From: Candidatus Nanopelagicales bacterium
Lineage (GTDB): Bacteria; Actinomycetota; Actinomycetes; S36-B12
Length of the DNA stretch: 56,324 nucleotides
Direction of reading: 5' to 3'
Assembly (NCBI GenBank): GCA_044345075.1
Contig: JBIJBU010000001.1
Location: 1-56,324 of the forward strand
In this document: in pieces, positions 9,940-38,793 of the stretch
Numbering within the stretch: the stretch's first letter is position 1
Layout: every line of letters starts with the position of its first letter
The notes under the pieces: generated by a model
The model's input: only the letters and a program-made list of their open reading frames with translations
What the model was told of the DNA's origin: nothing
Databases searched by the model: none
Translations under genes and position numbers: made by a program

Positions 9940-11115
9940 TCAGCCGCGTTCCATCAGAAGCTTGCGATACGGCGCGAGTTCCGATGTCTTGTCGATTCCG
10001 ATAACACCGACGAGGCCTGAGTCGTCAAAGTACTCAGCGATGCATGCCTCATCGGCAGTGCCCGCAACGATCTCGATGCGCGTGGCGTTACCGGGCATGC
10101 CGAAGGACTGGATCTTGTGGCTGTACTGATCGGACCAGAACGATGGCATCGCGGTGAACGGGGTCTGCGAGACCTCGTCGCCCGCAAGCAGGGCGGCGAG
10201 AGTCTGACCAGCGCGCTTGCCCGTCTCGGTTGGCATATTCCAGTGCTCGATCCGACGCTTAGGCCCGGAGAAGAGTGCGTTGTGATGGCGGGCAATATCG
10301 CCGACTGCCACCACATTGATCGTGCCGTCAACGATCATCGCGTCATCGACCGAGAGCCCGTCGCCGAGATCGAGACCATTGCCATCGAGCCACTCGACAT
10401 TGGCCACCGAGCCCACGGCTTCCACGACGATATCGGCTGGCAGGACTGTTCCGTCATCGAGCGTGGCAGATTCGACACGGTCATCGCCGTTAAAAGATGT
10501 GACGGTGCGTCCGAGGTAAAAGTTCACGCCATTGGCTTCGTGTCGGCGACGCATCCCGGCACCCAGCTCGGCGCCCAACGGGCGAATCATCGGCTCGGCA
10601 TCGAGAGCGACGATGTTCACCTCGCAGCCAACCTTGCGAGCGGTGGCTGCAACCTCACAGCCGATAAAGCCGGCACCCATGATGAGCACCTTGGCGCCGG
10701 GAACGAGCGCCGCCCGAAGTGCGCGGGCATCCTCGGCTGTGCGCAATACGACTCGACCCGTCTGCGGGCCGGGGATCGGAAGTCTGCGGGGGCGAATGCC
10801 GGCAGCGACAGCGAGGGCATCGAACTGCAGAACAGTTCCGTCAGCGAGGGTGACGGTGCCCTCGTTGATGCTGGAGGTCACTGCAGGTGAACCGAGTTTC
10901 CAGGTGACGTCATCCACGTGGGCCTTGCGGCGGAACTCGAGATCTGCGACCTCGACTCCGCCCGCGAGCGCCTCCTTCGACAGTGGCGGTCGGTTGTACG
11001 GCAGATGGATCTCGTCACCGACGATGGTGACCTCACCTGCGTAACCTGACGCGCGCAGAGTCTCGGCTACGCGCAGACCGCCGAGGCCTGCGCCGATGAT
11101 GACGACGCCGGCCAT
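9940..11115 (-). CDS. FAD-dependent NAD(P)H:ferredoxin reductase (putidaredoxin-reductase type)
   Basis: The N-terminus is VVIIGAGLGGLRVAETLR...IVGDE.HLPYNRPPLSK. A second dinucleotide fold is VLIMGAGFIGCEVA. It sits 2 nt downstream of the ferredoxin gene. Confidence 0.85.
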   Translation of the reverse strand: MAGVVIIGAGLGGLRVAETLRASGYAGEVTIVGDEIHLPYNRPPLSKEALAGGVEVADLEFRRKAHVDDVTWKLGSPAVTSSINEGTVTLADGTVLQFDALAVAAGIRPRRLPIPGPQTGRVVLRTAEDARALRAALVPGAKVLIMGAGFIGCEVAATARKVGCEVNIVALDAEPMIRPLGAELGAGMRRRHEANGVNFYLGRTVTSFNGDDRVESATLDDGTVLPADIVVEAVGSVANVEWLDGNGLDLGDGLSVDDAMIVDGTINVVAVGDIARHHNALFSGPKRRIEHWNMPTETGKRAGQTLAALLAGDEVSQTPFTAMPSFWSDQYSHKIQSFGMPGNATRIEIVAGTADEACIAEYFDDSGLVGVIGIDKTSELAPYRKLLMERG

Positions 11116-11117
11116 GA

Positions 11118-11306
11118 CTAGGAGATCTCGATGGCCTGCATCGGGCAGACGTCAGCGGCGCTCTCGACATCAGCGCGACGATCGTCGGCAACCTCAGCGA
11201 CGTAGACGATGTGCCCGGCAGCATCGAGGGAGAAGACGTCAGGTGCCTCGAAGCAGCACTGGCCGTAGTGCTGGCACTTGTCCATGTCGATGGTGACCTT
11301 GATCAT
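11118..11306 (-). CDS. Small [3Fe-4S]-type ferredoxin of the kind that partners with P450s
   Basis: The 62-aa product is MIKVTIDMDKCQHYGQCCFEAPDVF...VCPMQAIEI. The C-x5-C...CP cysteine pattern is typical of actinobacterial P450 ferredoxins. Confidence 0.85.
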   Translation of the reverse strand: MIKVTIDMDKCQHYGQCCFEAPDVFSLDAAGHIVYVAEVADDRRADVESAADVCPMQAIEIS

Positions 11307-12184
11307 TACTTCTTCTCCTCAACGGTTGACGGGTAGAGATCCTTCGAAGGGGTGCGGATACCGCGGAACTCCCAGTCGCCGCCCTTGGCGGTCGAGATGA
11401 CCTCTTCGCTCTCGGTCGGCTGCGCACCGACATCGGTGCGAATGGGAGTGGGGCCTTCCACGATCACGTTGGTCAGCGAGCCCAGGCCCTCGACCTCGAC
11501 GGTGACGACATCACCGGGGTAGACCGTGCGCGAGAACGCCGGGGTGCCGGAGAACAGGATGTCGCCGGGCACGAGCGTGATGGTGCGCGCGATATCGGCG
11601 ACCAGGTAGTGCATGTCCCATTCCATCTCGGCGGTCGTGGAGTCCTGCTTCACGACGCCATTCACGATGGTGCGGATGCGCTTGTTGCGGAAGTCCCAGT
11701 CGGTGACCAGGCCCGGCCCGATGGGCGCCAATGTGTCAGCACCCTTGACCCGAAGCATCGAGCCGGCATCGGTATCGCGGAAGTCGTGCAGGCCGTAGTC
11801 GTTGCCGATCGTGTAGCCGGCGATGTACTCGCCTGCCTCATCGGGCGAGATGTTGCGGCAGGTCTTGCCGATGACGATGACGATCTCGCCCTCGTAGTTC
11901 AGCCACTTGCAGCCATTCGGGCGCACGACCGCGCCGTTGTGTGAATTGATTGCCGTGATGGGCTTGTGGAAGTACGTGGGAGCCGGCGGCAGCTTGGTCA
12001 TGAATTCCTGAGTACGCGAGTCGTAGTTCAGGTGAACGCAGATGATCTTCGTGGGCTCCACGGGCGCAAGGTGAGTCGCATCGGCGATCGCTACCACTCG
12101 GCCGTCGCCGGCAATGAGATTCTCGCCATCGCGCACGACCTGCACGGGTGCGCCATCGAGGAGGATCCTTCGGTATTCGGTCAC
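11306..12184 (-). CDS. Fumarylacetoacetate hydrolase (FAH) family hydrolase/isomerase/decarboxylase (HpaG-like)
   Basis: It has a duplicated-looking FAH fold. Motifs include KIICVHLNY, YEGEIVIVIGK, GYTIGNDYG and PGDILFSGTP. Confidence 0.8.
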   Translation of the reverse strand: MTEYRRILLDGAPVQVVRDGENLIAGDGRVVAIADATHLAPVEPTKIICVHLNYDSRTQEFMTKLPPAPTYFHKPITAINSHNGAVVRPNGCKWLNYEGEIVIVIGKTCRNISPDEAGEYIAGYTIGNDYGLHDFRDTDAGSMLRVKGADTLAPIGPGLVTDWDFRNKRIRTIVNGVVKQDSTTAEMEWDMHYLVADIARTITLVPGDILFSGTPAFSRTVYPGDVVTVEVEGLGSLTNVIVEGPTPIRTDVGAQPTESEEVISTAKGGDWEFRGIRTPSKDLYPSTVEEKK

Positions 12185-13095
12185 GCTTCTGCCCTTCGAG
12201 TTGTCCAGCCGGTGTCGGGTCGATCGAACCAGACATGAACCTGGCTCGTGCCAATGGAGTTTTCGTAGTCGCTGATCTGCACGCCCGGAGCTGAGAAATC
12301 ACGTTCACCGAGGGCAGCAGCCATCATCACGTAGTGCGCGAACTTCGCTTCAGGACGGACCTTGAGGAATTCCGGCATGGTGTCGAGCACGAGATCGTGA
12401 CGACCTTCCTTGAACCAGTCGAGACGCTGGTAGTCGGCCTCGCGGGCTTCCGGGCTGAAGATGTGCGAGGGATCGCTGGACTCGTGCTTGCGCAGTTCGC
12501 GCAGCGGATAGAACGTGTGCGACAGGGAACCGGTCGCGATGATGATGACCTTGCGATCGCTCTTGCGAATGGCTTCGCCGATTGCCCGACCCACGCGTAG
12601 GAAATCCTCGGTATCAGCGGTCTGACACACGCTCACCGAGATCCAGGACTTGTCAGGATTTCCCTTGCCGAGGTAACTCCAGATGTTCACGGAGGGGTAG
12701 TAGATCGGCAGGTAGTGATCATCATTCGCGGTGATCCAGGTGTCGTGCGGAGCACCCTCGGCTGCGATCAAGTGCGCGAGTTCGGGGTCGCCCTTCCAGT
12801 CGTAGGGAATGCGGCACATACCGCGCGGCAGCTCCTCGGCCGTGAAGAGACCCGAGCGACGATCCTGTGCGGTGACGATGAATTCGACTGTCGTGAACCA
12901 GTGCGAGTCGAGCAGCAGCACGGTGTCGTAGTCATAGGTGTCGAAGACGTCGCGGCGCAGTTTCTCGAGTGCCGGGACTAGCGAGATCTCCTTGCCCTCA
13001 TTGAGCTCGTAACGAGTCTCCTTCGGCAACATGATGGTCGGCACATGCGACAGCAGACCGGCTGCGACTACCTCACCCATGACTCCTACTTCCAT
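12181..13095 (-). CDS. Class III (LigB-type) extradiol ring-cleavage dioxygenase, HpaD/HpcB-like
   Basis: The N-terminal VAAGLLSHVPTIM, the ...LLLDSHWF motif and ATGSLSHTF fit the LigB/homoprotocatechuate 2,3-dioxygenase family. ATG 13080 is an alternative start. Confidence 0.75.
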   Translation of the reverse strand: MEVGVMGEVVAAGLLSHVPTIMLPKETRYELNEGKEISLVPALEKLRRDVFDTYDYDTVLLLDSHWFTTVEFIVTAQDRRSGLFTAEELPRGMCRIPYDWKGDPELAHLIAAEGAPHDTWITANDDHYLPIYYPSVNIWSYLGKGNPDKSWISVSVCQTADTEDFLRVGRAIGEAIRKSDRKVIIIATGSLSHTFYPLRELRKHESSDPSHIFSPEAREADYQRLDWFKEGRHDLVLDTMPEFLKVRPEAKFAHYVMMAAALGERDFSAPGVQISDYENSIGTSQVHVWFDRPDTGWTTRRAEA

Positions 13096-14546
13096 CCGTT
13101 CGGTGCGAACACGGTGTTCTTGACGTCAGCGTAGAAATCAAATGACCACAAGCCGCCCTCGCGACCGATGCCTGAACGCTTCGAGCCGCCGAACGGCGCT
13201 GAGAGATCGCGAACGAAGAAGCAGTTCACCCAGATCGTGCCGGCGACCAGGAACTTCGTGAAGGCCTCTGCACGCTCGCGATTGCCACTGACGACGCAGG
13301 CTGCGAGCCCGAACTCAGTGCCATTGGCGAGTGCCAGGCCTTCCTCGTCGGTGTCGAAGGTTTGCATCGTGAGAACGGGGCCGAAGACCTCTTGCGTGAG
13401 GATCTCGCTGCCCGCAGGTGCGTCGATCACGAGTGTCGGCTTGATGTAGTGAGTGCCGAGTGCGGAGTTCACTTCGCCGCCGTACGCGATCGTTGCGCCG
13501 TCGTTCTTCGCACGCTCGATGAAACCGGTGACGCGCTCCACATGCTTGAGGTGGATATTCGGCCCGATCTGGGTTTCCTCATCGCGCGGATCGCCCTGCT
13601 TGATCTGCGCAGCACGCTCAGCGAACTTTGCGGCGAACGCCTCGGCAATGCCCTTCTGTACGAGCAGTCGAGTGCCAGCAAGGCACACCTGGCCGGCGTT
13701 GTCGTACTGCTCGATCGCGAGCTCAACAGCGAGATCGAGATCGGCGTCGTCGAGGATCACTGTCGGGCTCTTGCCGCCGAGTTCGAATGAGCACGGGATC
13801 AGATTCTCAGCGGCTGCGCGAGCGACGGTCTTCGCGGTGGGCACCGAGCCGGTGAAGCAGATGCGCGAGACATCGGGATTCTCGGTGAGAGGTGCACCGG
13901 CCTCGACGCCGAAGCCCTGCACGACATTGAACACACCTGCGGGCAGGCCTGCCTCATGTGCGAGCTGTGCGAAGTACGAAGCCGTGAGCGGTGCCCACTC
14001 CGGTGGCTTGAGCACCACAGTGTCGCCCGAGGCCAGTGCCGGCCCGATGCGCCAGGTGGCGAGCATCAGTGGTGCATTCCACGGCGTGATGATTACCGCA
14101 ACACCGGAGGGATCCCAGGTGACGTGGTTGGTGTGACCGCGTGTTTCGAACTCAGGGTGCTTGAGATCGTTCATCGCGTAGTCAGCGAAGTAGCGGATGT
14201 TCATGACGACGCGGGGCATGACTCCGCGGCGATGCGAGCGCAGCAGCGAACCGTTGTCGTGAGTCTCGAGCTGGGCGAGCTCCTCGATGTGCGCCTCGAT
14301 GTTGTCGGCAACCTTGTGCAAGATCGCGCCGCGCTCCTGCGGGCTCAACTTGGCCCAGGCAGGGAAGGCGGCCTTGGCCGCGGCGACTGCGGCATCGGCT
14401 TCGGCGCGACCGCCTCGGCTGACCTGCGCGATCACGGTGCCGTCGATGGGGGAGACCGAGTCGAAGGTGTCGGCGGAAGCTACCCGCTGACCCCCGATCC
14501 AGTGCCGGGTATCAACCGTGACGCCGGCAACGGTGGCAGTCGACAT
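13086..14546 (-). CDS. NAD-dependent aldehyde dehydrogenase (HpaE-like ring-fission semialdehyde dehydrogenase)
   Basis: ALDH motifs are FTGSVPTAK, ELGGKSP and the catalytic CLAGTRL. I trimmed the start from 14684 to ATG 14546 (MSTATVAGVTVDTRHWIGG). Confidence 0.85.
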   Translation of the reverse strand: MSTATVAGVTVDTRHWIGGQRVASADTFDSVSPIDGTVIAQVSRGGRAEADAAVAAAKAAFPAWAKLSPQERGAILHKVADNIEAHIEELAQLETHDNGSLLRSHRRGVMPRVVMNIRYFADYAMNDLKHPEFETRGHTNHVTWDPSGVAVIITPWNAPLMLATWRIGPALASGDTVVLKPPEWAPLTASYFAQLAHEAGLPAGVFNVVQGFGVEAGAPLTENPDVSRICFTGSVPTAKTVARAAAENLIPCSFELGGKSPTVILDDADLDLAVELAIEQYDNAGQVCLAGTRLLVQKGIAEAFAAKFAERAAQIKQGDPRDEETQIGPNIHLKHVERVTGFIERAKNDGATIAYGGEVNSALGTHYIKPTLVIDAPAGSEILTQEVFGPVLTMQTFDTDEEGLALANGTEFGLAACVVSGNRERAEAFTKFLVAGTIWVNCFFVRDLSAPFGGSKRSGIGREGGLWSFDFYADVKNTVFAPNGWK

Positions 14547-14592
14547 CTGTGCTCTCATTCGTCGTTCGGAAAGTATGCTGATCGCAATTCTA

Positions 14593-14614
14593 GATCGTTC
14601 GGACCCTAACGGAA
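14593..14614. promoter_or_regulatory. Island operator motif, site 1 (GATCGTTCGG-AC-CCTAACGGAA)
   Basis: The left half matches the consensus perfectly and the right half matches 6/10. An extra half-site, cgTCGTTCGG, lies at 14561-14570. The site sits between the divergent starts at 14546 (-) and 14647 (+). Confidence 0.5.
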
Positions 14615-14646
14615 TACGGGTCCGGCCACCAGCCTTTGGAGGAATT

Positions 14647-15345
14647 GTGACCCGTCCGCGCATTGCGATCCTGGGCAGGTTCACCGAATCGGCGAGTGCC
14701 TTGCGCTACCGCGGTCTGGTCAGCTCCCGTGCCCTCCTGGAATACGTCTGGGCCGCCGGCGGCGACCCCATGACCTTGCTGCCTGGCAGTGACGCTGATG
14801 CTCTCGACTGGGAGGCCCGACTCCGGGGTTTTGAAGGAGTACTGCTCCCTGGTGGCGGTGATATCCGTCCGACTCGTTACGGCAAGGGTGACGATGATCC
14901 GACCCTGTACGACATGGACGACATGCAGGATGAGTCCGACTTCACACTTACCCGCTACTGCCTTGACCAGGGGATCCCGATGCTCGCGGTCTGCCGCGGC
15001 CTGCATGTGCTCAACGTGGTGACGGGCGGCACCCTTGTGGTGGACATGCCCGATCACCACCGTCATGTGGTGCACGACGTGACCTTGAGCGAGGGCGCTA
15101 CAGCCCTGGGAATCACGGATTCGCACGTGGCTGCGTCCTGCTACCACCATCAGGCGGTCGAGCGCGTGGGCGACGGGCTGACCGTCATCGGAATGTCAGC
15201 AGACGGCATCGTGGAGGCAGTCGTCGCCGATGCGAAGGCCTGGACAGTCGGCGTGCAATGGCACCCGGAGGACACCTACGCCAGCGATGAGCACCAGATG
15301 CAGCTGATGCGGCGCCTCGTGCAGGAGTCGTCGAGCGTTCTCTGA
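14647..15345 (+). CDS. Gamma-glutamyl-gamma-aminobutyrate hydrolase family protein (PuuD-like, peptidase C26 / class I GATase)
   Basis: The nucleophile motif is LAVCRGLHVLNV and the His motif is GVQWHPE. A GGAGG RBS precedes GTG 14647. I trimmed the ORF-track start at 14518 because it overlaps the divergent gene. Confidence 0.8.
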   Translation: MTRPRIAILGRFTESASALRYRGLVSSRALLEYVWAAGGDPMTLLPGSDADALDWEARLRGFEGVLLPGGGDIRPTRYGKGDDDPTLYDMDDMQDESDFTLTRYCLDQGIPMLAVCRGLHVLNVVTGGTLVVDMPDHHRHVVHDVTLSEGATALGITDSHVAASCYHHQAVERVGDGLTVIGMSADGIVEAVVADAKAWTVGVQWHPEDTYASDEHQMQLMRRLVQESSSVL

Positions 15346-15361
15346 CTAGGGCAAGGAACGG

Positions 15362-15853
15362 CTAATTCGCGGCTTGCGTGATGCGGCGCAGGATGTCGGC
15401 AGCCACGGGCTGCTCTGCCGAGGTGAGGTCGCGCACCACGTGGCGCTCAGCCTTGTTGAAGTCCGGGAAGAGCTTCTTCATCAGGCGCTTGCCCGAGGCA
15501 GTCAACTCGACCGTGACGAGGCGACCGTCCTTCTCGCCGCGCTTGCGCTCGACGAAGCCGCGGCCTTCGAGGGTGGTGAGCACCCCGCTCAGAGTGGCCT
15601 TGGAGACCCCGGCCTCGGAGGCGATCTCACGGGTCTCGGCGGTCTCCCAGATCCAGGCCACCCAGAGCACCACGAAGGCTGTCCAGGTGAGGTTGGACTT
15701 GGCCAGCACCGTGCGCTCCATGTGATTGCGGGCAGCATTGGCGGCGCGGAACAGGTTGGCGGTGACGGCCATGGCCTCGAAGTCGAGATCCATTCCGGCC
15801 AGGCGCGTAGCGACCTGGCTCTCGGTCTCGTCGAGAGTGTGCTGCCCGGGCAT
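15362..15853 (-). CDS. MarR family transcriptional regulator
   Basis: The product is 163 aa. The winged-helix region is EIASEAGVSKATLSGVLTTLEGRGFVERKRGEKDGRLVTVELTASG. Confidence 0.85.
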   Translation of the reverse strand: MPGQHTLDETESQVATRLAGMDLDFEAMAVTANLFRAANAARNHMERTVLAKSNLTWTAFVVLWVAWIWETAETREIASEAGVSKATLSGVLTTLEGRGFVERKRGEKDGRLVTVELTASGKRLMKKLFPDFNKAERHVVRDLTSAEQPVAADILRRITQAAN

Positions 15854-15867
15854 ATGGCCCCCATCTT

Positions 15868-15891
15868 GAGGTGAATCGTGAGGTGATTCGT
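15868..15891. repeat. Tandem 12-nt direct repeat GAGGTGAATCGT / GAGGTGATTCGT
   Basis: I read this directly from the sequence. It lies 15-38 nt upstream of the MarR start codon in the MarR/P450 divergent region and may be an operator. Confidence 0.5.
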
Positions 15892-15978
15892 GTGGCCTGT
15901 CGAGGCACGTGATCAGGAATTATTGCCCGAAGTCTGGCAACACTTCACATGAATCGCCACATCGGTCTACAGTACTCA

Positions 15979-16000
15979 GATAGTTCGGACCCGAACGATC
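15979..16000. promoter_or_regulatory. Island operator motif, site 2 (GATAGTTCGG-AC-CCGAACGATC)
   Basis: This is a 22-bp palindrome with one mismatch between its arms. It ends 18 nt upstream of the P450 ATG at 16019. Confidence 0.6.
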
Positions 16001-16018
16001 TTGAGTTCCGGAGGATTC

Positions 16019-17263
16019 ATGAGCACGCTGACCGATGTCACCCTGGCCGACCTGAGCCTCTTCGCTGATGGCGCCCCCTGGCAGGTCTTCGAAGATCTGC
16101 GCAAGAACTCGCCTGTCCACTGGAACGTGGAGGAGGCTCCGAACAACGGCTTCTGGTCGGTTACTCGCTACAACGACATCGTCGACGTGCTTCGCGACAC
16201 CGAGACCTACTCCAGCGAGATTGGCGCGGCCAATCTCGAGGAGCTCGACACTCGCCAGCTCGAAATCCGCAAGTCGATTCTGGAGACCGACGGCCCTCGT
16301 CACCGCGCCCTGCGCAAGATGCTGCAGCCGCAGTTCACCCCTCGCGCGCTCGCGGGCTACGAGACCTTCCTTCGCGGTATCACCGCCACGACCCTTGATC
16401 GTGCACTCGCCAAGGATCAGTTCGACTTCGTCGCCGACGTCGCCGCTGATTTCCCGATTCGCGTGCTGGCGCAGTTGCTCGACGTTCCCGAGTCCGACAT
16501 TCCTCAGCTGATCAAGTGGGGAAACAAGATGGTCGGAAATCAGGACCCCGAGCATGCCGATGTTCTCGCCGACAGCCCTGAAAGTGAGATGTACCGCGAT
16601 CTCCCGTTCCGTTCGCCGGCAGCTCTCGAGGTGTTCAAGTACGGGTACGAGCTCGCCTGGGGTCGCAAGGGTGGTAACGGAACCGACCTCGTGTCGGTGC
16701 TGATCAACACCGAGCCGTCTGACGGCATTGCTATCGATGCACGTGACTTCCGCAATTACTTCCTGCTGCTCGTCATCGCAGGCAACGAGACCACTCGCCA
16801 CACCATTACGCACACCATGAACAACCTGATGGCCAACCCCGATCAGCTTGCAATCCTTCGCGAGAAGCCCGAACTGATCCCGTGGGCCGTGGAGGAATTC
16901 CTGCGCATGGCTAGCCCGGTGCATCACTTCCGTCGTACCGCGCGGCACGAGACAGTGCTCAATGGCCAGGAGATCAAGGCCGGCGACAAGGTTGTCGTGT
17001 GGTTCGGCTCTGGCAATCGCGACGAGGAAATCTTCGCCGATCCCTACAAGTTCGACGTGCAGCGTCATCCGAATGAGCACATGTCCTTCGGCCGCGGTGG
17101 CCCGCATATGTGCCTGGGCAACTCACTCGCGCGCCTCGAGATCCAGATCATGTTCGAGGATCTTCTCTCTCGCGATGTTGATCTGATGCCCAATGGAAAA
17201 GCTGATTACGTGCTGAGCAACTTCGTGCACGGCTTCAAGCGCCTGCCGGTCAAGAAGGCGTAA
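16019..17263 (+). CDS. Cytochrome P450 monooxygenase
   Basis: The heme-binding loop is FGRGGPHMCLGNSLA, the I-helix is VIAGNETTR and the ExxR motif is EEFLR. A GGAGGA RBS precedes ATG 16019. Confidence 0.9.
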   Translation: MSTLTDVTLADLSLFADGAPWQVFEDLRKNSPVHWNVEEAPNNGFWSVTRYNDIVDVLRDTETYSSEIGAANLEELDTRQLEIRKSILETDGPRHRALRKMLQPQFTPRALAGYETFLRGITATTLDRALAKDQFDFVADVAADFPIRVLAQLLDVPESDIPQLIKWGNKMVGNQDPEHADVLADSPESEMYRDLPFRSPAALEVFKYGYELAWGRKGGNGTDLVSVLINTEPSDGIAIDARDFRNYFLLLVIAGNETTRHTITHTMNNLMANPDQLAILREKPELIPWAVEEFLRMASPVHHFRRTARHETVLNGQEIKAGDKVVVWFGSGNRDEEIFADPYKFDVQRHPNEHMSFGRGGPHMCLGNSLARLEIQIMFEDLLSRDVDLMPNGKADYVLSNFVHGFKRLPVKKA

Positions 17264-17280
17264 TTCATCCGAGCAATGAT

Positions 17281-17310
17281 GAAGGGCCGTCGACTACTCG
17301 CCGGCCCTTC
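17281..17310. terminator. Hairpin between convergent genes (probable bidirectional terminator)
   Basis: GAAGGGCCG and CGGCCCTTC form a perfect 9-bp stem around a 12-nt loop. The hairpin lies between the P450 stop (17263) and the GATase1 stop (17324). Confidence 0.55.
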
Positions 17311-17323
17311 GTCATCTCAGCTT

Positions 17324-18055: not shown

Positions 18056-18111
18056 GCGGCAAATCCTCTCCCAAACTGGCCCCGCGGGAGGACGATTCGA
18101 CATAGGATTTC

Positions 18112-18137: not shown

Positions 18138-18187
18138 TGACGATACTCACAAAGGCGAGAAACTCGCAACGGCGACAGGGGCAGCAC

Positions 18188-19537: not shown

Positions 19538-19540
19538 AGG

Positions 19541-20386: not shown

Positions 20387-20395
20387 TTGATCTGA

Positions 20396-32644: not shown

Positions 32645-33642
32645 GCAGTGGCTCCGGGAACGAGCACGAAGCGACCGTTGACCTTGCCTTCGTGCAGACG
32701 ATCGTGAGCAATCTGTGCCTGCTCAAGCGCGAGCACCTCCACCTCGGAATGCAGGTCATGCTGCTGCGCGAGGGCGACGAGATCGGCCAGCTGATCACGT
32801 GAACCCCACACCGATGTCATGAAGTGCGCCTCATGGGGAACAACTCCGAAGCCGAAGGGGATCGTGCCGCCGAAGAGCCCGACGGTCACGCTGATGCCTT
32901 GGCGTGCCACGTGATCTCGGGCGGTCTGCACGGTGGCTTCTGCGCCGACGAAATCCACCACGGCCGTGAACGTGCCTTCCACTTCACCTGGGGCGACAGC
33001 CGAGTCAGCGCCGAGTCGAAGTGCGAGTTCGCGCTTCTGCGGTGAGGCATCGACGACGACGATCTCGGCCTCGGAGCGGATGCGCAGGAACTGCAGCCCG
33101 TACTGGCCGAGACCTCCGACCCCGATCACGAGTGCGCGCGGATGGGGCACTCCCTTGCTCGGCGCTGCGGCCAGGAAAGGCAGGGTGTGATCGACAGCGC
33201 GGTACGCGGTCAGGCCACCACAGGCCAGCGGTGCTGCCTTGGCGGGGTCGAGGTCGCCGATCGGTACGAGGTAGTAGTCGTCCTTGATCCAGATTCGGTC
33301 GGCATAACCGCCGGGGGTGAACAGACCGATCTCCTGGCTGTTGGGGCAGATCATTTCCTGTTGCGAGTCGCAGGCGAAGCAGCCGGGCTGGCGGCAGCCC
33401 CAGCACGCATAGACCAGGCAGTTGCCGAGGGTCGGATGCGCGACCACCACTTCATGCCCCATGGTTACGGGCATGGGAACGGGGAAGTCCCCGGCGGACA
33501 CGTGGAGGTCGGAGTGGCAGATTCCGCAGGCCAGCACGTCGAGGACGGACTGGTGGGGGCCACCGGCGGGATCGATCACCGGGTCAGGGACATCGAGTAA
33601 CTCCAGCGGGGTACCGGGCGATGTCAGGACAACGGCGCGCAT
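32641..33642 (-). CDS. Zinc-dependent alcohol dehydrogenase (MDR family)
   Basis: The catalytic zinc site is GICHSDLH, the structural zinc cluster is CWGCRQPGCFAC and the NAD fold is VIGVGGLGQYG. I trimmed the start to ATG 33642. The stop overlaps the P450 start. Confidence 0.85.
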   Translation of the reverse strand: MRAVVLTSPGTPLELLDVPDPVIDPAGGPHQSVLDVLACGICHSDLHVSAGDFPVPMPVTMGHEVVVAHPTLGNCLVYACWGCRQPGCFACDSQQEMICPNSQEIGLFTPGGYADRIWIKDDYYLVPIGDLDPAKAAPLACGGLTAYRAVDHTLPFLAAAPSKGVPHPRALVIGVGGLGQYGLQFLRIRSEAEIVVVDASPQKRELALRLGADSAVAPGEVEGTFTAVVDFVGAEATVQTARDHVARQGISVTVGLFGGTIPFGFGVVPHEAHFMTSVWGSRDQLADLVALAQQHDLHSEVEVLALEQAQIAHDRLHEGKVNGRFVLVPGATA

Positions 33643-33730: not shown

Positions 33731-35074
33731 ATGTCCTGGGACCCCGCCGAGCGCGATCGCGTTGCCGCCCTGTGCGAGGAACACGGCGTGCACACCGTCG
33801 AGTGCGTGATCGTCGACAGCTGGGGTATGCCCCGCGGCAAGCGACTGCCGGTCAAGCAGTTCCTGCGCGGCTCGGGCTACGCCATCGCCAGCGTGGTCTA
33901 CAGCTGGGATCCCACCTGCTTCATCTTCGACACCCCCTGGGTCTCCGTTGATGGCGGTGTTCCCGACATGCACGCAATCCCTGATCTCTCCAGCTTCCGC
34001 ATCGCGGGCTGGACGGACGGCGTTGCGATCGTCATGTGCGACACGGTGACGGTCGATGGCCACGAGCCGATCGCGATGGATGCCCGCAACATGCTCAAGA
34101 AGCAGCTCGCTCGCGCAGAAGCGCTGGGCTATGGCGTCGATGCAGCATCCGAGCTCGAGTGCCACTTCTTCACACCCGACTGGAAGCCGATCTACGACGA
34201 CATCAACTGCTACTCCATATACCGCGGCTGGGAGATGGAGCCCTTCATGCTCGATATCCGCGAGTCGCTGCGCAAGACCGGCATCGAGGTCGAGGCTTGC
34301 AATGTCGAGTACGGCCCGGGTCAGACCGAGATCAACGTGCGCTACGGCCCGATGCTGAAGATGGCCGACGACACCGTGTACTTCAAGTACATCGTCCGCC
34401 TGTGTGCCAAGCGCCACGGCCTCAACGTCACCTTCATGGCGAAGCCGTTCATCTCGGAGGCCGGTAATGGCATGCACATTCACCAGTCGCTGACCAAGGA
34501 TGGCAAGAACGCCTTCGCGGCGCAGGACGAAGACACGGTGCTCGGCAATGCACTGATGCGCAAGTACCTCACGGGTTTGCTCGCGCATCACAAGGAACTG
34601 CAGTTGATCATGACCCCGACGATCAGCGGCTACAAGCGACTGCAGGATTACTCCTTCTCGCCGACACAGGTCACCTGGGGACTCGATCACCGACTCGTCG
34701 GCGTGCGTTCCATCGTCGGTGCCGGCCCTGCCAATCGCCTTGAAGCCCGCTGGGCTGCAGCAGATGCGAATCCGTACCTGGTGTTCGCAGGCGTTCTTGC
34801 CGCCGGCCTCGACGGAATTGAGAGCGACTACGAGCTCATGCCTCAGACCACGGGCGACCCGCATGCGGAGGAGCAATGGGAGCGACTTCCTACGAGCATC
34901 GACGGTGCGATAGACAACTTCGACTCGGCATTCACTCGCGAGGTATTCGGTGATATCTTCGTCGACAACTTCCTATTCATGCAGCGCCGAGAGTATGACG
35001 AATTCATGGCGAATGCCGAGCAGGGCGACGATGTCAGTGAGTGGGAACTCAATCGCTACCGGGCGGTGATCTAG
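33731..35074 (+). CDS. Glutamine synthetase family protein (GS-like ligase), copy 3
   Basis: Motifs are ASELECHFF, NVEYGPGQTEIN, GNGMHIHQSL, SGYKRL and VRS...NRLEAR. A GGAGGA RBS precedes the ATG. Confidence 0.85.
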   Translation: MSWDPAERDRVAALCEEHGVHTVECVIVDSWGMPRGKRLPVKQFLRGSGYAIASVVYSWDPTCFIFDTPWVSVDGGVPDMHAIPDLSSFRIAGWTDGVAIVMCDTVTVDGHEPIAMDARNMLKKQLARAEALGYGVDAASELECHFFTPDWKPIYDDINCYSIYRGWEMEPFMLDIRESLRKTGIEVEACNVEYGPGQTEINVRYGPMLKMADDTVYFKYIVRLCAKRHGLNVTFMAKPFISEAGNGMHIHQSLTKDGKNAFAAQDEDTVLGNALMRKYLTGLLAHHKELQLIMTPTISGYKRLQDYSFSPTQVTWGLDHRLVGVRSIVGAGPANRLEARWAAADANPYLVFAGVLAAGLDGIESDYELMPQTTGDPHAEEQWERLPTSIDGAIDNFDSAFTREVFGDIFVDNFLFMQRREYDEFMANAEQGDDVSEWELNRYRAVI

Positions 35075-35776
35075 ATGGCGCACATTTTGATGATCAGCCA
35101 TGAGCCCGAGGCGGCACCAGGGGTCATCGGTGAACTCCTGGCCGAGCAGGGCCATGATGTCGAGCGGCACATCATCCTCACCGATCCGGCGAATCCCGAC
35201 ACCAACTTCCCTGACGTCAATGACTTCGACGCCGTGATCGCCTTCGGCTCCTTCTCCAATGTCTATGACGAGAAGTCACGAGTATGGGTCGAACCTGAGA
35301 TTGAGCTCATCCGCTCGACCATGCGCGATGACGTTCCCTACCTCGGACTCTGCTTCGGCGGGCAGCTGCTCACCGAGAGCCTGGGCGGTTATGTCGAGAG
35401 AGCGCCGGATGGCAGCGATGAGGTCGGCCTGCTGAGCATTGAGCCGACCGGAGCCACGATGCCCATTCCGCAGGGCCCGTGGTTCACCTGGCACGAGGAT
35501 CGCATGATCCTGCCGGCTGATGTCGAGATCCTCGCCGAGACCCCTGATGCCGTTCAGTTGTTCCGCAAGGGTCGGGCAGTCGGCACGCAGTTCCATCCTG
35601 AGGCCAATGTCGAACTCGTGTCGGGCTGGATTCGCATCGGGCCTGATCACGTTCCCGATTACACATCCGCCGACCAGATCCTCGGAGACCTCGCTCGCGC
35701 GAGCGAGGCTACGCGCGCGAACTGCGCGGCCCTTCTTGACTGGTTCCTGCGCGATGTCGCCGAGGTAGATGCGTGA
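35075..35776 (+). CDS. Class I glutamine amidotransferase-like protein (GATase1), a paralog of 17324-18055
   Basis: The nucleophile elbow is LGLCFGGQLLT and the His motif is TQFHPE. The ATG immediately follows the GS-like stop (TAGATG). Confidence 0.8.
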   Translation: MAHILMISHEPEAAPGVIGELLAEQGHDVERHIILTDPANPDTNFPDVNDFDAVIAFGSFSNVYDEKSRVWVEPEIELIRSTMRDDVPYLGLCFGGQLLTESLGGYVERAPDGSDEVGLLSIEPTGATMPIPQGPWFTWHEDRMILPADVEILAETPDAVQLFRKGRAVGTQFHPEANVELVSGWIRIGPDHVPDYTSADQILGDLARASEATRANCAALLDWFLRDVAEVDA

Positions 35777-36912
35777 GCGCACCCCTCGAAGGGGTTGTCG
35801 TCGTCTCCCTCGAGCAGGCCATCTCGGCGCCGTTTGCCACTCGGCAACTCGCCGACCTCGGCGCGACGGTCATCAAGATTGAGCGCCCCGAGGGCGACTT
35901 TGCCCGTGCCTACGACAGCAATGTCCAGGGGGAGTCCGCATTCTTCGTGTGGGCGAACCGCGGCAAGCAATCGGTAGTGCTCGACATCAAGAACGCTGAT
36001 GACCTAGCCGCTTTCTGGGCACTGGTCGCCGGTGCTGATGTATTCATGCACAACATTGCTCCTGCATCGGCAGCGCGCCTCGGCATCGATGCGCAGACCT
36101 TGCATGCGAAGTACCCGTCACTCATTGCCTGCGAGGTCTCCGGCTACGGCCCGGGCGGGCCGCGCAGCGATGACAAGGCCTATGACCTCGCGATCCAGGC
36201 TGAGGCAGGTGCCTTCAGCGTCACCGGTGATGCGGAGATGAGCAAGGTCGGCTTCTCCGTCGCCGATATCGCATCGGGGATGTACGCGCTGTCGAGCGTG
36301 CTTGCCGCACTGGTGCGTCGTGATCGCACCGGCGAAGGCGCCGCCATTGGCGTTTCGATGCTCGATTCACTCACCGAATGGCTCTCGGCGCCCCTGTATG
36401 CCGCCGCTCACGGCGGTGGGCAGGCTCCGCGCACCGGACGTCGTCATCACGCGATCGCCCCTTACGGCACCTTCGGTCTTGCTGATGGACGCACAGTGTT
36501 GCTGGCCATTCAGAACGATCGCGAGTGGGCGGCCTTCGCCGAGCTGGTGCTCGCAGATGTTGCCTTGGCCACAGACTTGCGCTTTGCTACCAACGCCGTG
36601 CGGATTGCGAATGTCGATGAACTCGAGGCGGTCATCACCGCTCGGTTCGCGAGTGCTCCCGCCGATGAGATCCGCGCGAGCCTTGCCGCTGCAGGCATTG
36701 CCACGGCAAACGTCAACGACCTCGCGCATGTGTGGCAGCACGAGCAACTACGGGCGCGCGATCGGTTCACCGATGTCGAGCTTCCGAATGGGCGCATCGA
36801 GATGCTGAAGTCACCCTTCGACATCAGCGAATGGGCACCGGGCGCACAATCAGTGCCCGCGCTCGGCGAGCACGATGCGGCGACAGTGCGCCGGATCGCG
36901 GAAACCGACTAG
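35773..36912 (+). CDS. Family III CoA-transferase (CaiB/BaiF)
   Basis: The N-terminus is LEGVVVVSLEQAISAPFATRQLADLGATVIKIERPEGD. A GTGA overlap links it to the upstream gene. Confidence 0.85.
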   Translation: MSAPLEGVVVVSLEQAISAPFATRQLADLGATVIKIERPEGDFARAYDSNVQGESAFFVWANRGKQSVVLDIKNADDLAAFWALVAGADVFMHNIAPASAARLGIDAQTLHAKYPSLIACEVSGYGPGGPRSDDKAYDLAIQAEAGAFSVTGDAEMSKVGFSVADIASGMYALSSVLAALVRRDRTGEGAAIGVSMLDSLTEWLSAPLYAAAHGGGQAPRTGRRHHAIAPYGTFGLADGRTVLLAIQNDREWAAFAELVLADVALATDLRFATNAVRIANVDELEAVITARFASAPADEIRASLAAAGIATANVNDLAHVWQHEQLRARDRFTDVELPNGRIEMLKSPFDISEWAPGAQSVPALGEHDAATVRRIAETD

Positions 36913-38063
36913 TACGACTTCGGCAGCCCCAGCACGTGCTGACCTACATAGGCGAGCACGAGATTGTTGTTGATGGGCGCCACCTGGTAGAGCCGAGTCT
37001 CGCGGAACTTGCGCTCGATGTCGTACTCGACGGCGAAGCCGAATCCACCGTGTGTGTCGAGTGCGGCATTCGCTGCGGCCCACGATGCTTCCGAGCACAG
37101 CAGCTTGGCCATGTTCGCCTCAGCTGCACACTTCACGTGCGCGTCGTACTTTGCGGCGGCATCGAAGCGCATCAGGTCAGCGGCGCGCAGTTGCGCGTAC
37201 GCCTTGGCGAGCGGGAACTGCACGCCCTGATTCGAGCCGATCGGCTTGTCGAAGACTACGCGCTCATTGGCGTAGGCAACCGCCTTCTCCAGAAGGAACC
37301 GGCCATCACCGATGCACTCTGCGGCGATCAGGATTCGCTCGGCATTCATCCCGTCGAGGATGTACCGGAAGCCTTTGCCCTCCTCGCCGACGAGCGCATC
37401 AGCAGGGATGATCACGTCGTCGAGGAAAACCTCGGTCGTGTTGTGATTCATCATCGTCTTGATGGGCTTGATCGTGATGCCCTCGACCTCGCGCATGTTG
37501 ATGAGAAAGGTCGACAGGCCTTCAGTCGGCTTCTCGCACTCGTCGTACGGAGTCGTGCGCGCGAGCAGCAGCATCAAGTCTGAGTAGAGAGCGCGTGAGG
37601 TCCAGATCTTCTGGCCATTAATGCGCCAGCCCTCAGGCACGCGCTCGGCCTTGGTGCGAATTCGAGTGGTCTCTGAGCCAGCGCCGGGCTCGGTGACACC
37701 GAAGGCCTGCAGGCGCAGGGTGCCGTTGGCGATCTGCGGTAGGTAGTGCTGCTTTTGCTCGGTACTGCCGTGACGCAAGATCGTGCCCATCACGTACATC
37801 TGTGCATGGCAGGCAGCGGGGTTACCACCGGAAGCAGCGATCTCCTCCATGATGATCGAGGCCTCGGTGAGGGTGGCTCCGCCGCCTCCATACTCCTCGG
37901 GGATTAGGGCAGCCAGGTACCCGGCCTGGGTCAGGGCGTTGACGAACTCCTGCGGGTAGGTTTCAGGCTCGAGCCCGCGCCAGTATTCGCCGGGGTAGGC
38001 CTCGCAGATCTCGCGCACGCCGGCGCGAAGGTCGTCATACTCGGGGATATCGGTCAGCTTCAC
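36909..38063 (-). CDS. Acyl-CoA dehydrogenase
   Basis: It is a canonical ACAD of 384 aa. Motifs are FGVTEPGAGSE, WITNG-like ING.KIWTS and the C-terminal YEGTN-like QVAPINNN. Confidence 0.85.
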   Translation of the reverse strand: MKLTDIPEYDDLRAGVREICEAYPGEYWRGLEPETYPQEFVNALTQAGYLAALIPEEYGGGGATLTEASIIMEEIAASGGNPAACHAQMYVMGTILRHGSTEQKQHYLPQIANGTLRLQAFGVTEPGAGSETTRIRTKAERVPEGWRINGQKIWTSRALYSDLMLLLARTTPYDECEKPTEGLSTFLINMREVEGITIKPIKTMMNHNTTEVFLDDVIIPADALVGEEGKGFRYILDGMNAERILIAAECIGDGRFLLEKAVAYANERVVFDKPIGSNQGVQFPLAKAYAQLRAADLMRFDAAAKYDAHVKCAAEANMAKLLCSEASWAAANAALDTHGGFGFAVEYDIERKFRETRLYQVAPINNNLVLAYVGQHVLGLPKSY

Positions 38064-38073
38064 AGGCTATTTG

Positions 38074-38085
38074 TATCATTTATCA
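38074..38085. promoter_or_regulatory. Direct repeat TATCA-TT-TATCA (candidate GntR operator, copy B)
   Basis: It lies in the 43-bp region between the ACAD start (38063, -) and the GntR start (38107, +). Confidence 0.4.
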
Positions 38086-38106
38086 GAAATCTGGGCAGGA
38101 GGAATC

Positions 38107-38793
38107 GTGGCAAAGGATGCGGTCGACCGCGTACCGAGGCGGCGCAACCTCGCCGACGACGTCGCCGATCACATTCGCGAGGCGATTCTTACCGGTCGGA
38201 TGCGCCCTGGCACCCGAGTCGACCAGGACGCCATTGCCGAGGATCTCGGGGTTTCCCGGCTTCCGGTGCGTGAAGCTCTGATCGCCCTGGATCAAGAGGG
38301 CCTGATCGCCACCATCCCCCGACGCGGTTCGCGAGTTCAGCAACTATCGCCTGACGACATCATCGATCACTACGAGCTCTTCGGTCAGGTGGCCGGGCTT
38401 GCTACCGCGCGTGCGGTCACGCGTATCGATGATGCGGGCATTGCTCGCCTTGCCGAGCTCCATGCGCAGATGGAGGCGACACCTGACAAGGCCGAGCGTC
38501 AGCGCCTGAACTTCGAGTTCCACCGCACCATCAACACAGCCGCAGGCAGCAAAAGAATCAACTCGATGCTGCGCCTGCTCTCGAAGTCACTGCCGATGCC
38601 CTATGTCGACTTCCCCGACGAGTGGCTCCATGATGCGAGTGAGCAGCATGACGAGATCATGGCGGCTTTCACGAAGCGAGATTCCGCCGCTGCCCAGCGA
38701 GCAATGCAAAATCACATCAGCTCGAGCGGCCGTCATGCGATCGATGTGCTGACTGCCATGGGCTTCTTCGAGCCGGTCGAATCAGACGACTGA
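38107..38793 (+). CDS. GntR family transcriptional regulator (FadR/FCD subfamily)
   Basis: The wHTH is LADDVADHIREAILTGRMRPGTRVDQDAIAEDLGVSRLPVREAL. The C-terminus is helical and FCD-like. An AGGAGG RBS precedes GTG 38107. Confidence 0.85.
   Translation: MAKDAVDRVPRRRNLADDVADHIREAILTGRMRPGTRVDQDAIAEDLGVSRLPVREALIALDQEGLIATIPRRGSRVQQLSPDDIIDHYELFGQVAGLATARAVTRIDDAGIARLAELHAQMEATPDKAERQRLNFEFHRTINTAAGSKRINSMLRLLSKSLPMPYVDFPDEWLHDASEQHDEIMAAFTKRDSAAAQRAMQNHISSSGRHAIDVLTAMGFFEPVESDD

Follow-up and report, generated by a model that had tools for sequence, protein, structure and literature searches.

The 56,324-nucleotide stretch analysed here (hereafter the window, meaning this whole stretch: positions 1 to 56,324 of contig JBIJBU010000001.1, assembly GCA_044345075.1, from a Candidatus Nanopelagicales bacterium) carries between positions 8379 and 38793 a ~30 kb group of genes, delimited by open reading frame (ORF) listing and Pfam and NCBIfam scans of the window, which, to judge from sequence comparisons, forms a conserved catabolic supercluster on the chromosome of a freshwater bacterium not yet in culture. 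Three of its genes encode proteins of the glutamine synthetase (GS) family (GS1, GS2 and GS3) that are predicted to be amine-glutamylating ligases, and the explanation that best fits the region as a whole, to which we give an even chance, is that of a supercluster in which three modules (A, B and C) make up routes around these ligases. The general mechanism, an amine catabolism that depends on such ligases, has good support from the sequences.

Putrescine, isopropylamine, anilines and polyamines are known examples of amines that are glutamylated before they are oxidised. To our knowledge, and in the literature searched, the glutamyl group is removed in the known cases at or before the entry of the carbon into central or ring-cleavage pathways. 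What is probably new in this region is that the known glutamylation strategy is joined to aromatic ring-cleavage routes, a link not made before, since the ligase genes seem to be co-regulated with, and are conserved beside, complete ring-cleavage sets. A joint reading, which is tentative and rather doubtful, goes further: the glutamyl group would protect the amine through aromatic hydroxylation and ring fission, in an undescribed 'glutamyl-shielded meta-cleavage' that would turn tyramine- or dopamine-type amines into pyruvate and the gamma-glutamyl derivative of the aldehyde of gamma-aminobutyrate (GABA), and a NicX subfamily devoid of Glu177 would cleave a glutamylated (hetero)aromatic amide and not 2,5-dihydroxypyridine, both routes being common among the abundant freshwater Actinomycetota that are uncultured, and also carried by plasmids of Streptomyces, Novosphingobium and Ensifer strains in culture. 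If shielded cleavage takes place, it would explain how an aminoethyl-catechol ring can be opened without the amine cyclising onto the ring-fission aldehyde, would provide a function for an ADC-family enzyme, for a NicX subfamily and for a large family of unknown proteins, and would make aromatic amines substrates of abundant, not yet cultivable freshwater Actinomycetota. Cultured carriers of each module exist, among them S. lunaelactis MM109 (pSLUN1), Novosphingobium sp. EMRT-2, Ensifer adhaerens W2-B9 and M. loti NZP2037, so the steps are open to direct testing.

The three GS-like ligases and their accompanying hydrolases and P450s

The Gln-synt_C domain is present in all three GS-like proteins (E values of 1e-82 to 3e-90), which are ~30% identical to one another and have the sequences of anciently diverged ligases. 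They were aligned with E. coli GlnA and PuuA, the IpuC homologue of pTC1 and the ligase (AdoQ) associated with the aniline dioxygenase of Sphingobium YBL2. The metal, ATP and glutamate ligands (E129, E131, E212, E220, H269, R321, R339, R344, E357 and R359) are kept in GS1, GS2 and GS3, whereas the catalytic flap residue E327 is replaced in them by M, L and F, Y179 by V, V and C, and N264 by G, V and A, respectively; the same three positions have also been lost in PuuA (Y, V, A), IpuC (W, T, A) and AdoQ. In the same order, the proteins reached 247, 235 and 220 bits with the GlnA model TIGR00653 (cut-off 429) and 262, 243 and 224 bits with the model for type III GS and GMAS, TIGR03105 (cut-off 470), and all three gave 222-247 bits with the PuuA model GGputSyn (cut-off 650). 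Because E327, Y179 and N264 are lost and the scores lie far below the cut-offs for GlnA, type III GS and PuuA, the three proteins can be classed from their sequences as amine-glutamylating ligases, not glutamine synthetases, of the GoaS type (gamma-glutamyl-organic-amine synthetases) described for NpaA1 (PMC11335346).

Pairwise scores were 189-241 bits with the pTC1 IpuC homologue, 155-194 with E. coli PuuA and 114-132 with E. coli GlnA. GS3 had the highest score with the IpuC homologue (241 bits), to which both GS1 and GS3 are 35% identical, and GS1 is 46% identical to the ligase of S. lunaelactis plasmid pSLUN1. A small neighbour-joining (NJ) tree grouped GS3 with the M. loti ligase and IpuC, GS2 with ligases of Ilumatobacteraceae and Novosphingobium, and GS1 with the S. 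lunaelactis ligase; as only one true GS roots this tree, the residue signature outweighs it as evidence. The GS2 clade, comprising the window protein and those of Novosphingobium (locus L087, 14980-16275) and Ilumatobacteraceae (L067, 9989-11302), has in common an Asn in place of the ATP-site His271.

Three hydrolase-like proteins accompany the ligases, none of them with a synthase partner. The one of the PuuD type, C26, aligned with PuuD, is 49% identical to a hydrolase of S. lunaelactis and has gamma-glutamyl-GABA hydrolase as its best NCBIfam match, with 74 bits against a cut-off of 266. The two class I amidotransferase (GATase)-like proteins, GATa and GATb, aligned with the TdnT/AdoT type and show 29-32% identity to AdoT of the Sphingobium YBL2 aniline dioxygenase cluster. 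In the alignments the catalytic Cys and the His-Glu pair are intact in all three. The original prediction, which had taken the GS-like proteins for amine-type ligases and the GATase-like ones for stand-alone hydrolases, is thus upheld on both counts: the ammonium-site residues of the former are gone, their scores are far from those of GlnA, and neither the residue signature nor the few-reference NJ tree places them with true GlnA, while the latter have intact triads, align with TdnT/AdoT and PuuD, and do not look like subunits of biosynthetic amidotransferases.

The two cytochromes P450, P450a and P450b, share 40% identity, and their identity to the ligase-adjacent P450s of Novosphingobium and M. 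loti is 37-45%. P450a is 41% identical to the former and 39% to the latter, both of which adjoin GS-like genes, and 29% to that of the Ipu cluster; P450b has 45% identity with the M. loti enzyme. P450s of this group adjoin such ligases in four distant lineages. A CYP151-type (morpholine/piperidine) identity was rejected, the closest solved structures of both proteins in the PDB being those of the CYP125/124/126 group. The ferredoxin (Fdx) and ferredoxin reductase (FdR) encoded in module A, predicted to be P450 redox partners, are 38% and 32% identical, respectively, to their counterparts in the Ipu cluster of pTC1. In the Ipu pathway the P450 hydroxylates the glutamylated amine (PMC6776027), and by analogy a P450 of the window could act on a glutamylated intermediate.

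Module A as a predicted regulon with a ring-cleavage set

Module A (8379-22224), judged by the families of its products, joins an Ipu-like set of ligase, P450 and hydrolase to an Hpa-like meta-cleavage set. The latter comprises a LigB-type extradiol dioxygenase, an aldehyde dehydrogenase (ALDH) and a FAH-family protein whose best NCBIfam models are HpaD_Fe (129 bits, cut-off 316), HpaE (512, cut-off 638) and HpaG-C (197, cut-off 276), all three below cut-off. The closest PDB entry to LigB is HpaD (8iq8), and beta subunits of 2-aminophenol 1,6-dioxygenase were also matched (~1e-8). PurU passes the cut-off of its model (TIGR00655, 318 bits against 286), and the ADC-family enzyme is nearest to MppR (2e-51) and then to Sbi00515 (3e-43); its gene adjoins that of FAH in loci L089 and L098.

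The ALDH, LigB, FAH, Fdx and FdR genes are joined by overlapping or abutting stops and starts, with the gene for a 513-aa protein 19 nt past FdR, and the FAH, LigB and ALDH genes can be regarded as translationally coupled because their start and stop codons overlap. By abutting or overlapping codons, GS1-PurU, ADC-LLM, hydrolase-NicX-GS2, ADH-P450b-MDMPI and GS3-GATb-CoAT form further operons. A repeat search revealed the palindrome AGATCGTTCGG-NN-CCGAACGATCT in all four divergent intergenic regions of module A (O1 to O4), with zero matches expected by chance (100 shuffles). It is kept at GS-proximal sites in at least 12 related loci, and in Ilumatobacteraceae it lies ~65 nt 5' of the GS2-type gene. 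We consider it a candidate operator, probably that of the MarR-type regulator, and module A most likely a single regulon under one repressor of this type: since all four promoter regions contain the palindrome, the regulon would take in GS1, P450a, both hydrolases, Fdx and FdR, LigB, ALDH, FAH, the 513-aa protein, PurU, the ADC-family enzyme and the F420-dependent enzyme.

For the study of synteny, all proteins of the window were compared by tblastn with 80 fetched loci with 10-kb flanks; loci are referred to here by L numbers. Outside the Nanopelagicales, a Novosphingobium plasmid (L087) carries next to a GS-like gene LigB (59% identity), FAH (72%), ADC (50%) and ALDH (48%), together with MarR, P450 and ferredoxin genes, and plasmid pSLUN1 of S. 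lunaelactis (L090) likewise has LigB (64%), FAH (75%), ADC (59%) and ALDH (64%) next to a GS-like gene, with MarR and without P450 or GATase1. The pSLUN1 cluster adds a tyrosine-decarboxylase-like pyridoxal phosphate (PLP) enzyme and a second ALDH, whose best NCBIfam match is PuuC (554 bits) and whose stop codon overlaps the start of a PuuD-family hydrolase gene. PLP decarboxylases are also found inside module A of L088, L098 and L099. RefSeq calls the LigB orthologues of Novosphingobium (L087, 12679-13536) and S. lunaelactis (L090, 4587-5561) 'catechol 1,2-dioxygenase', a name that looks wrong, given that they are 59% and 64% identical to a LigB-family enzyme of the extradiol type. In one related MAG (L089, 4711-5205), module A is interrupted between C26 and MarR by a gene for a rifampin ADP-ribosyltransferase (Arr-ms).

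The 513-aa protein matched no Pfam or NCBIfam family. It has more than 5900 homologues, all 'hypothetical', and a Rossmann-like motif (VAILGASAEMG); the best 120 matches of this protein, as well as those of GS1, were metagenome proteins without names only. Its AF2 model (pLDDT 73, pTM 0.80) gave no PDB match with E<1e-3 in a fold search, the weak ones being mostly Rossmann domains of short-chain dehydrogenases/reductases (SDR) and other reductases. Its gene adjoins module A genes in L088, L098 and L099. In the last two (8566-13192 and 8568-13195, respectively) it stands between added genes for a group II PLP decarboxylase and a thiamine diphosphate (ThDP)-dependent enzyme, and a group II PLP decarboxylase is also encoded at 401-1810 of L088. 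The window lacks both the decarboxylase and the ThDP enzyme, which would therefore have been lost here or gained in the relatives.

A possible route for module A

The specific substrates and the scheme of shielded ring cleavage that we propose for module A have, in our estimate, somewhat less than an even chance of being right. A tyramine- or dopamine-type arylethylamine, possibly methylated, would be taken up, some relatives making it by means of the adjacent PLP decarboxylase, and GS1 would join it to glutamate. P450a, with Fdx and FdR, would hydroxylate or demethylate the glutamyl amide to give a catechol; that is, it would supply the second ring hydroxyl, converting a tyramine-type into a dopamine-type compound, or alternatively act as a demethylase. 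LigB would then open the ring with the amine still shielded, and the HpaE-like ALDH, the HpaG-like FAH and the Sbi00515/MppR-like ADC enzyme, the latter in place of HpaH and HpaI, would lead to pyruvate, CO2 and gamma-glutamyl-gamma-aminobutyraldehyde. Once this aldehyde had been oxidised, C26 would free GABA and glutamate. GATa may be a TdnT-like auxiliary hydrolase, maybe a safety valve, and PurU would handle one-carbon units. As in the Puu pathway, the purpose of the shielding would be to prevent a free amine from attacking the aldehyde, here that formed by ring fission, and cyclising.

The Hpa route consists of extradiol cleavage, semialdehyde oxidation, isomerisation and decarboxylation, hydration and aldol cleavage, ending in pyruvate and an aldehyde that retains the side chain together with two carbons of the ring. 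If the side chain of gamma-glutamyl-dopamine is carried through these steps, a derivation from the known homoprotocatechuate pathway, the resulting aldehyde would be the Puu intermediate gamma-glutamyl-gamma-aminobutyraldehyde. MppR and Sbi00515 form Schiff bases with 2-oxo acids and catalyse aldol and dehydration reactions, which is why a single ADC-family enzyme could replace both HpaH and HpaI. The scheme would account for the presence of a PuuD-family hydrolase within an Hpa-like operon and for the PuuC/PuuD-like pair of Streptomyces, as well as for the PLP decarboxylases, the amino-acid-type permeases and the absence of HpaH and HpaI. The position of PurU behind GS1 and the VanA-type demethylase of L089 and L098 give a hint of methylated substrates. 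A described catabolic route for gamma-glutamyl tyramine or dopamine was not found in the literature searched, the coverage of which was incomplete, and nothing relevant was found in the literature on PDB entries 5GJ7 and 5Z8T.

Modules B and C and their relation to module A

The hydrolase-NicX-GS2 operon, together with the divergent gene for the ACAD-fold protein ACADa and the nearby TetR gene, constitutes a unit of its own, module B: 11 of the 12 Nanopelagicales-like loci have NicX, the same count holds for ACADa and for TetR, and the unit also occurs in Acidimicrobiia. In NicX, Glu177 forms hydrogen bonds with N1 and O1 of 2,5-dihydroxypyridine, and the Fe ligands have been defined likewise (PMC7910607). 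The NicX-like protein of the window keeps all four Fe(II) ligands (H265, S302, H318 and D320), as well as H105, H189 and R293. Its Glu177 is replaced by Ser, and by Ser or Thr in seven ligase-associated relatives, the confidence of the HMMER alignment being moderate at this position, so that the His105-Glu177-His189 network of hydrogen bonds to the substrate is incomplete. The ligase-associated members also have smaller residues in the pocket (C76 replaced by Gly, and V175 by Ala or Gly), and they do not conserve E308. Such Glu177-less proteins, for instance those at 13968-15050 of L067 and 11983-13032 of L100, are always accompanied by an ACAD-fold oxygenase, a hydrolase, a TetR regulator and a GS-like ligase. 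The loss of Glu177 to Ser or Thr and the smaller neighbouring pocket residues make 2,5-dihydroxypyridine an unlikely substrate of module B, and it was set aside as a candidate; a glutamylated hydroxy-arylamide is a speculative one for the NicX-like enzyme.

In plasmid p1 of Ensifer adhaerens, an operon encodes NicX-like (47%) and ACAD-fold (41%) proteins, a hydrolase, TetR, a GS-like protein, a flavin reductase and an APC permease. Because the 41% orthologue of ACADa shares this operon with a flavin reductase, ACADa probably serves as the oxygenase of a flavin monooxygenase with two components, and the module as a whole recalls the logic of HsaAB/HsaC/HsaD, namely hydroxylase, ring cleavage and hydrolase. 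GS2 would glutamylate another amine, probably aromatic, the flavin monooxygenase would hydroxylate it, the NicX-like dioxygenase of altered specificity would cleave the product and the alpha/beta hydrolase would then act by hydrolysis. The Ensifer operon, with seven genes (L100, 9319-25017), is flanked by IS3 and IS30 transposase genes and by toxin-antitoxin genes, and on this account module B looks mobile in Rhizobiales. The palindrome AGTCAACAGTGTTGACA between the hydrolase and ACADa genes, present in one copy and matched in 12 of 100 shuffles, is a weak lead to a putative TetR operator.

In module C, GS3-GATb-CoAT is divergent from ADH-P450b-MDMPI, and ACADb and the GntR gene adjoin. A partial counterpart exists in M. 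loti (pML2037), with P450 (45%), ligase (41%), CoA-transferase (34%), a PuuD-like hydrolase, ADH, permease and GntR genes. The annotation of the M. loti counterpart of ACADb, 3-sulfinopropanoyl-CoA desulfinase, was tried for the window protein and discarded (29% identity; 194 bits against a cut-off of 600). The most economical proposal for this module would be an Ipu-like alkylamine route (ligase, P450b, ADH and GATb) leading to a CoA ester and feeding the CoA-transferase and acyl-CoA dehydrogenase steps.

The combination of modules varies among the fetched loci. L088 has module A alone, followed by unrelated genes; L089 lacks the NicX part and has an additional VanA-type Rieske demethylase; L075, L078 and L079 have two ligases each; and in the Acidimicrobiia loci L052, L055 and L060 a lone GS2-type ligase gene, with the module A operator ahead of it, lies amid genes of A and B. 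This last arrangement argues for modules that are functionally related, not independent, and they look like a toolkit of related glutamyl-dependent amine routes reshuffled between lineages instead of three unrelated pathways.

Comparison with known systems and alternative explanations

The GS-like ligase, the P450 with its Fdx and FdR, the GATase1 and PuuD-type hydrolases, ADH and ALDH and the APC permease of the Ipu system (Pseudomonas sp. KIE171; Paenarthrobacter aurescens TC1 pTC1/pTC2; Microbacterium pYJNG) are also encoded in the window, where ligase, P450/Fdx/FdR and amidotransferase-like hydrolase are clustered in the same way, although the P450 is not orthologous to that of Ipu (29% identity). 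Beyond the Ipu parts, module A has the complete LigB/ALDH/FAH/ADC set under a common operator, and module C a CoA-transferase and an acyl-CoA dehydrogenase. With the Puu pathway (E. coli PuuA-D) the cluster would share glutamyl shielding, the PuuD-family C26 and the predicted end of module A at gamma-glutamyl-gamma-aminobutyraldehyde; it differs in that the window encodes no PuuB-type oxidase, the ALDH is HpaE-like, PuuA and PuuD models stay below cut-off, identity between the ligases and PuuA is 29-30%, and an aromatic ring is the proposed source of the carbon skeleton. The systems for aniline and 1-naphthylamine (AtdA1-A5, TdnQTA1A2B, AdoQTA1A2B, NpaA1-A5) likewise have a ligase and a TdnT-type GATase beside oxygenase and ring-cleavage genes, with the glutamylated amine as the oxygenase substrate and the same ligase active-site signature. 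In contrast to Atd, Tdn and Ado, a P450 or a two-component flavin monooxygenase would replace the Rieske dioxygenase, no gene for which is present in the window (a VanA-type one is found only in the relatives L089 and L098), and identity to AdoQ is 28-33%.

As in Hpa, the LigB dioxygenase, the semialdehyde dehydrogenase, the FAH decarboxylase/isomerase and an HpaR-like MarR protein belong to one operon or regulon, but HpaB, HpaC, HpaF, HpaH and HpaI are absent from the window, scores stay below the cut-offs of the HpaD, HpaE and HpaG models, an ADC-family enzyme is present instead, and the ligase, P450 and hydrolases appear to be co-regulated with the set. The NicX-like protein has in common with NicX/Hpo, associated with the NicD/Nfo deformylase, the fold family, the four Fe(II) ligands and an adjacent alpha/beta hydrolase; it departs from them in the loss of Glu177, in the absence of NicC, NicF and NicE and in its constant partners, which are an ACAD-fold oxygenase, a TetR regulator and a GS-like ligase.

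Several observations weigh against the routes proposed above. LigB, FAH, ALDH and C26 fall short of the curated cut-offs for the Hpa and Puu enzymes that they resemble, and module A of the window has one ALDH and no second, PuuC-like one. The PLP decarboxylases of Nanopelagicales are as close to diaminobutyrate/aspartate decarboxylases as to tyrosine decarboxylases, or closer, and no such gene is present in the window. P450a and P450b are nearest to lipid- and steroid-hydroxylating CYP125/124 enzymes, and PurU and the F420-dependent enzyme fit the scheme without a firm role. The ligase tree has few references and a single true GS as root, and the Ensifer ligase is not orthologous to GS2, being 27% identical to all three ligases of the window, which suggests that the association of a ligase with the module B trio may have arisen more than once. 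Moreover, what the data display directly is gene content, ligase type, the predicted regulon, synteny and modularity, whereas every substrate and the order of the steps are deduced.

The original prediction had seen in the region three modules, each activating a different amine. The three sets do prove separable, with counterparts of each in other phyla, but they are not simple copies of a ligase, a hydrolase and a P450: module A reads as one regulon including an Hpa-like set, PurU and an F420-dependent enzyme, and module B has neither an amidotransferase-like hydrolase nor a P450 of its own in the window. The latter fact speaks against the idea, unlikely in our view, that three independent copies of this kind serve unrelated amines (such as a polyamine, an alkylamine or an aminopyridine) and that the ring-cleavage and CoA genes belong to separate pathways. 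This would agree with the mutual identity of ~30% among the ligases, each of which groups with a different outside clade, and with the occurrence of the modules apart from each other elsewhere; it conflicts, however, with the common operator by which GS1, GATa, P450a and C26 are linked with the LigB-FAH-ALDH operon and the ADC gene, with the recurrence of the ligase, LigB, FAH and ADC core across phyla, and with Acidimicrobiia locus L060, where one ligase gene stands amid parts of A and B. A functional analogue of the aniline oxygenases, about equally unlikely, would have ring-bound aromatic amines (anilines, aminophenols, aminobenzoates) glutamylated, the P450 or flavin monooxygenase replacing the Rieske oxygenase and releasing glutamine, and the free catechol or aminophenol passing to LigB or NicX-like cleavage, with GATa and GATb as TdnT-like proteins. 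The similarity of these two to YBL2 AdoT (29-32%), the match of LigB to 2-aminophenol 1,6-dioxygenase beta subunits (~1e-8) and a NicX-like subfamily that, with no Glu177 and smaller pocket residues, fits a non-pyridine substrate would all be in keeping with it. Yet a Rieske oxygenase is absent from the window, LigB is closer to HpaD than to AmnB, and the Streptomyces cluster has no hydroxylase and does have a PuuC/PuuD-like pair and a tyrosine-decarboxylase-like enzyme, a combination suggestive of a substrate whose ring already bears two hydroxyls and whose amino group is aliphatic.

The family matches taken at face value (HpaD, HpaE, HpaG, HpaR, NicX and the PuuD family) could correspond to co-located, unrelated standard pathways, namely homoprotocatechuate meta-cleavage, nicotinate/2,5-dihydroxypyridine degradation and a Puu-like polyamine route. 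We give little credence to this, as all such matches are below equivalog cut-offs, HpaB/C/F/H/I, NicC/F/E and PuuB are absent, NicX Glu177 is missing, and the operator and cross-phylum synteny tie the ligases to the cleavage genes. Least credible of all, and hardly to be expected, is that the cluster makes a natural product, gamma-glutamylated or derived from DOPA, with LigB as a DOPA-type dioxygenase and the F420-dependent enzyme as an LmbY-like reductase: F420-dependent LLM-class and MppR-like enzymes do occur in antibiotic biosynthesis too, and PLP decarboxylases are found nearby in relatives, but genes for nonribosomal peptide synthetases, polyketide synthases and tailoring enzymes are absent, permeases of the uptake type, repressor-type regulators and ALDH, FAH and CoA-level degradative enzymes are present, and the cluster is conserved in planktonic lineages with small genomes.

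Gene map and chromosomal setting

Gene identities, based on Pfam and NCBIfam profile scans of the listed ORFs, are given in Table 1. The genes named in the original prediction were all found in their places by these scans, although that inventory began one gene too late, the true start being at 8379, and left unnamed the LigB, HpaG-like FAH, HpaE-like ALDH, PurU, F420-type LLM and ADC-family genes, which prove central.

Table 1. Features of the cluster, with coordinates in the window.
Feature	Position	Strand	Remarks
513-aa protein, no known family	8379-9920	-	Last gene of module A operon
Ferredoxin reductase (FdR)	9940-11115	-	Pyr_redox_2/Reductase_C
4Fe-4S ferredoxin (Fdx), 62 aa	11118-11306	-	Fer4_15
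FAH-family, HpaG-like decarboxylase/isomerase	11306-12184	-	Pfam; best NCBIfam HpaG-C
LigB-type extradiol dioxygenase	12181-13095	-	Pfam; best NCBIfam HpaD_Fe
HpaE-like semialdehyde dehydrogenase (ALDH)	13086-14546 (or 14558)	-	Pfam; best NCBIfam HpaE
Palindrome O1, operator-like	14592-14615		Between ALDH and C26; one half degenerate
C26, PuuD-type gamma-glutamyl-amide hydrolase	14647-15345	+	Peptidase_C26, Pfam 2.7e-39
MarR-family regulator, HpaR-like	15362-15853	-	
Palindrome O2, operator-like, AGATAGTTCGGACCCGAACGATCT	15978-16001		Between MarR and P450a; 18 nt 5' of P450a start codon
Cytochrome P450a	16019-17263	+	Pfam
GATa, stand-alone class I GATase-like hydrolase, TdnT/AdoT type	17324-18055	-	
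Palindrome O3, operator-like	18113-18136		Between GATa and GS1
GS1, GS-like ligase, predicted GoaS type	18188-19537	+	Gln-synt_C
PurU formyltetrahydrofolate deformylase	19541-20386	+	Begins 3 nt past GS1 end
F420-dependent LLM-class oxidoreductase	20396-21328	-	Downstream of ADC gene
ADC-family MppR/Sbi00515-like enzyme	21340-22148	-	
Palindrome O4, operator-like	22176-22199		Between ADC and TetR; ~30 nt 5' of ADC start
TetR-family regulator	22254-22898	+	Accompanies module B in other taxa
GS2, GS-like ligase	22905-24176	-	Gln-synt_C
NicX-like Fe(II) dioxygenase	24178-25239	-	E 2e-51 to P. putida NicX 7CN3
Alpha/beta hydrolase	25236-26030	-	First gene of module B operon
Palindrome AGTCAACAGTGTTGACA, single copy	26060-26076		Hydrolase/ACADa intergenic region; overlaps -35-like TTGACA
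ACADa, ACAD-fold protein	26106-27368	+	Weak ACAD, DszC, SfnB, HsaA matches
APC-family permease	27498-29039	+	
Benzoate-CoA-ligase-family enzyme	29127-30725	+	
MDMPI/DinB-family protein	30732-31418	-	
Cytochrome P450b	31397-32644	-	
Zn-ADH	32641-33642	-	Divergent from GS3
GS3, GS-like ligase	33731-35074	+	Gln-synt_C
GATb, class I GATase-like hydrolase	35075-35776	+	
Family III CoA-transferase (CoAT)	35773-36912	+	
ACADb, acyl-CoA dehydrogenase	36909-38063	-	
GntR/FCD regulator	38071-38793	+	

In a scan of species-representative genomes the window fell among metagenome-assembled genomes (MAGs) of uncultured Candidatus Nanopelagicales and Actinomycetota. Many lake metagenome contigs encode a GS3 protein identical to that of the window, with unchanged neighbours. 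The complete gene order is kept in MAGs at 95-98% protein identity, and the same order, within the 10-kb flanks, in MAGs at only 65-75% identity (L018, L021, L026, L031 and L040); this recurrence at 65-98% identity argues that the grouping of the genes is not due to chance. The window has an even GC content throughout (0.61-0.64), and its tRNA genes are found only at ~54 kb, ~15 kb outside the cluster. Up to ~46 kb, no mobility gene was seen among the called genes of the cluster and the right flank, or among the left-flank ORFs, which were read by eye. Both flanks look like housekeeping genes: on the right there are EamA, glycogen-type GT4, GlgC-like and CYTH-CHAD genes, and on the left, in a reading by eye with no family scan, ORFs resembling an amino-acid ABC transporter, a sugar kinase and an L,D-transpeptidase. 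Taken together, the flat GC content, the position of the tRNA genes, the lack of a visible mobility gene and the gene order kept in MAGs indicate a conserved chromosomal cluster, so the initial description of the region as an island does not hold, and the comparison of genomes proposed along with it, which traces the cluster in MAGs down to ~65-70% identity, does not make it a strain accessory. A plasmid origin was also discarded, megablast of 22 kb against plasmids having returned just short purU-type matches. Rfam revealed no regulatory RNA within the cluster, and a scan for promoters and terminators gave no more sites than in shuffled sequences. The tRNA genes mentioned above are two tRNA-Ser genes (CGA and GGA anticodons), located at 54010-54405 beside a small signal recognition particle (SRP) RNA gene in what is an ordinary housekeeping arrangement.

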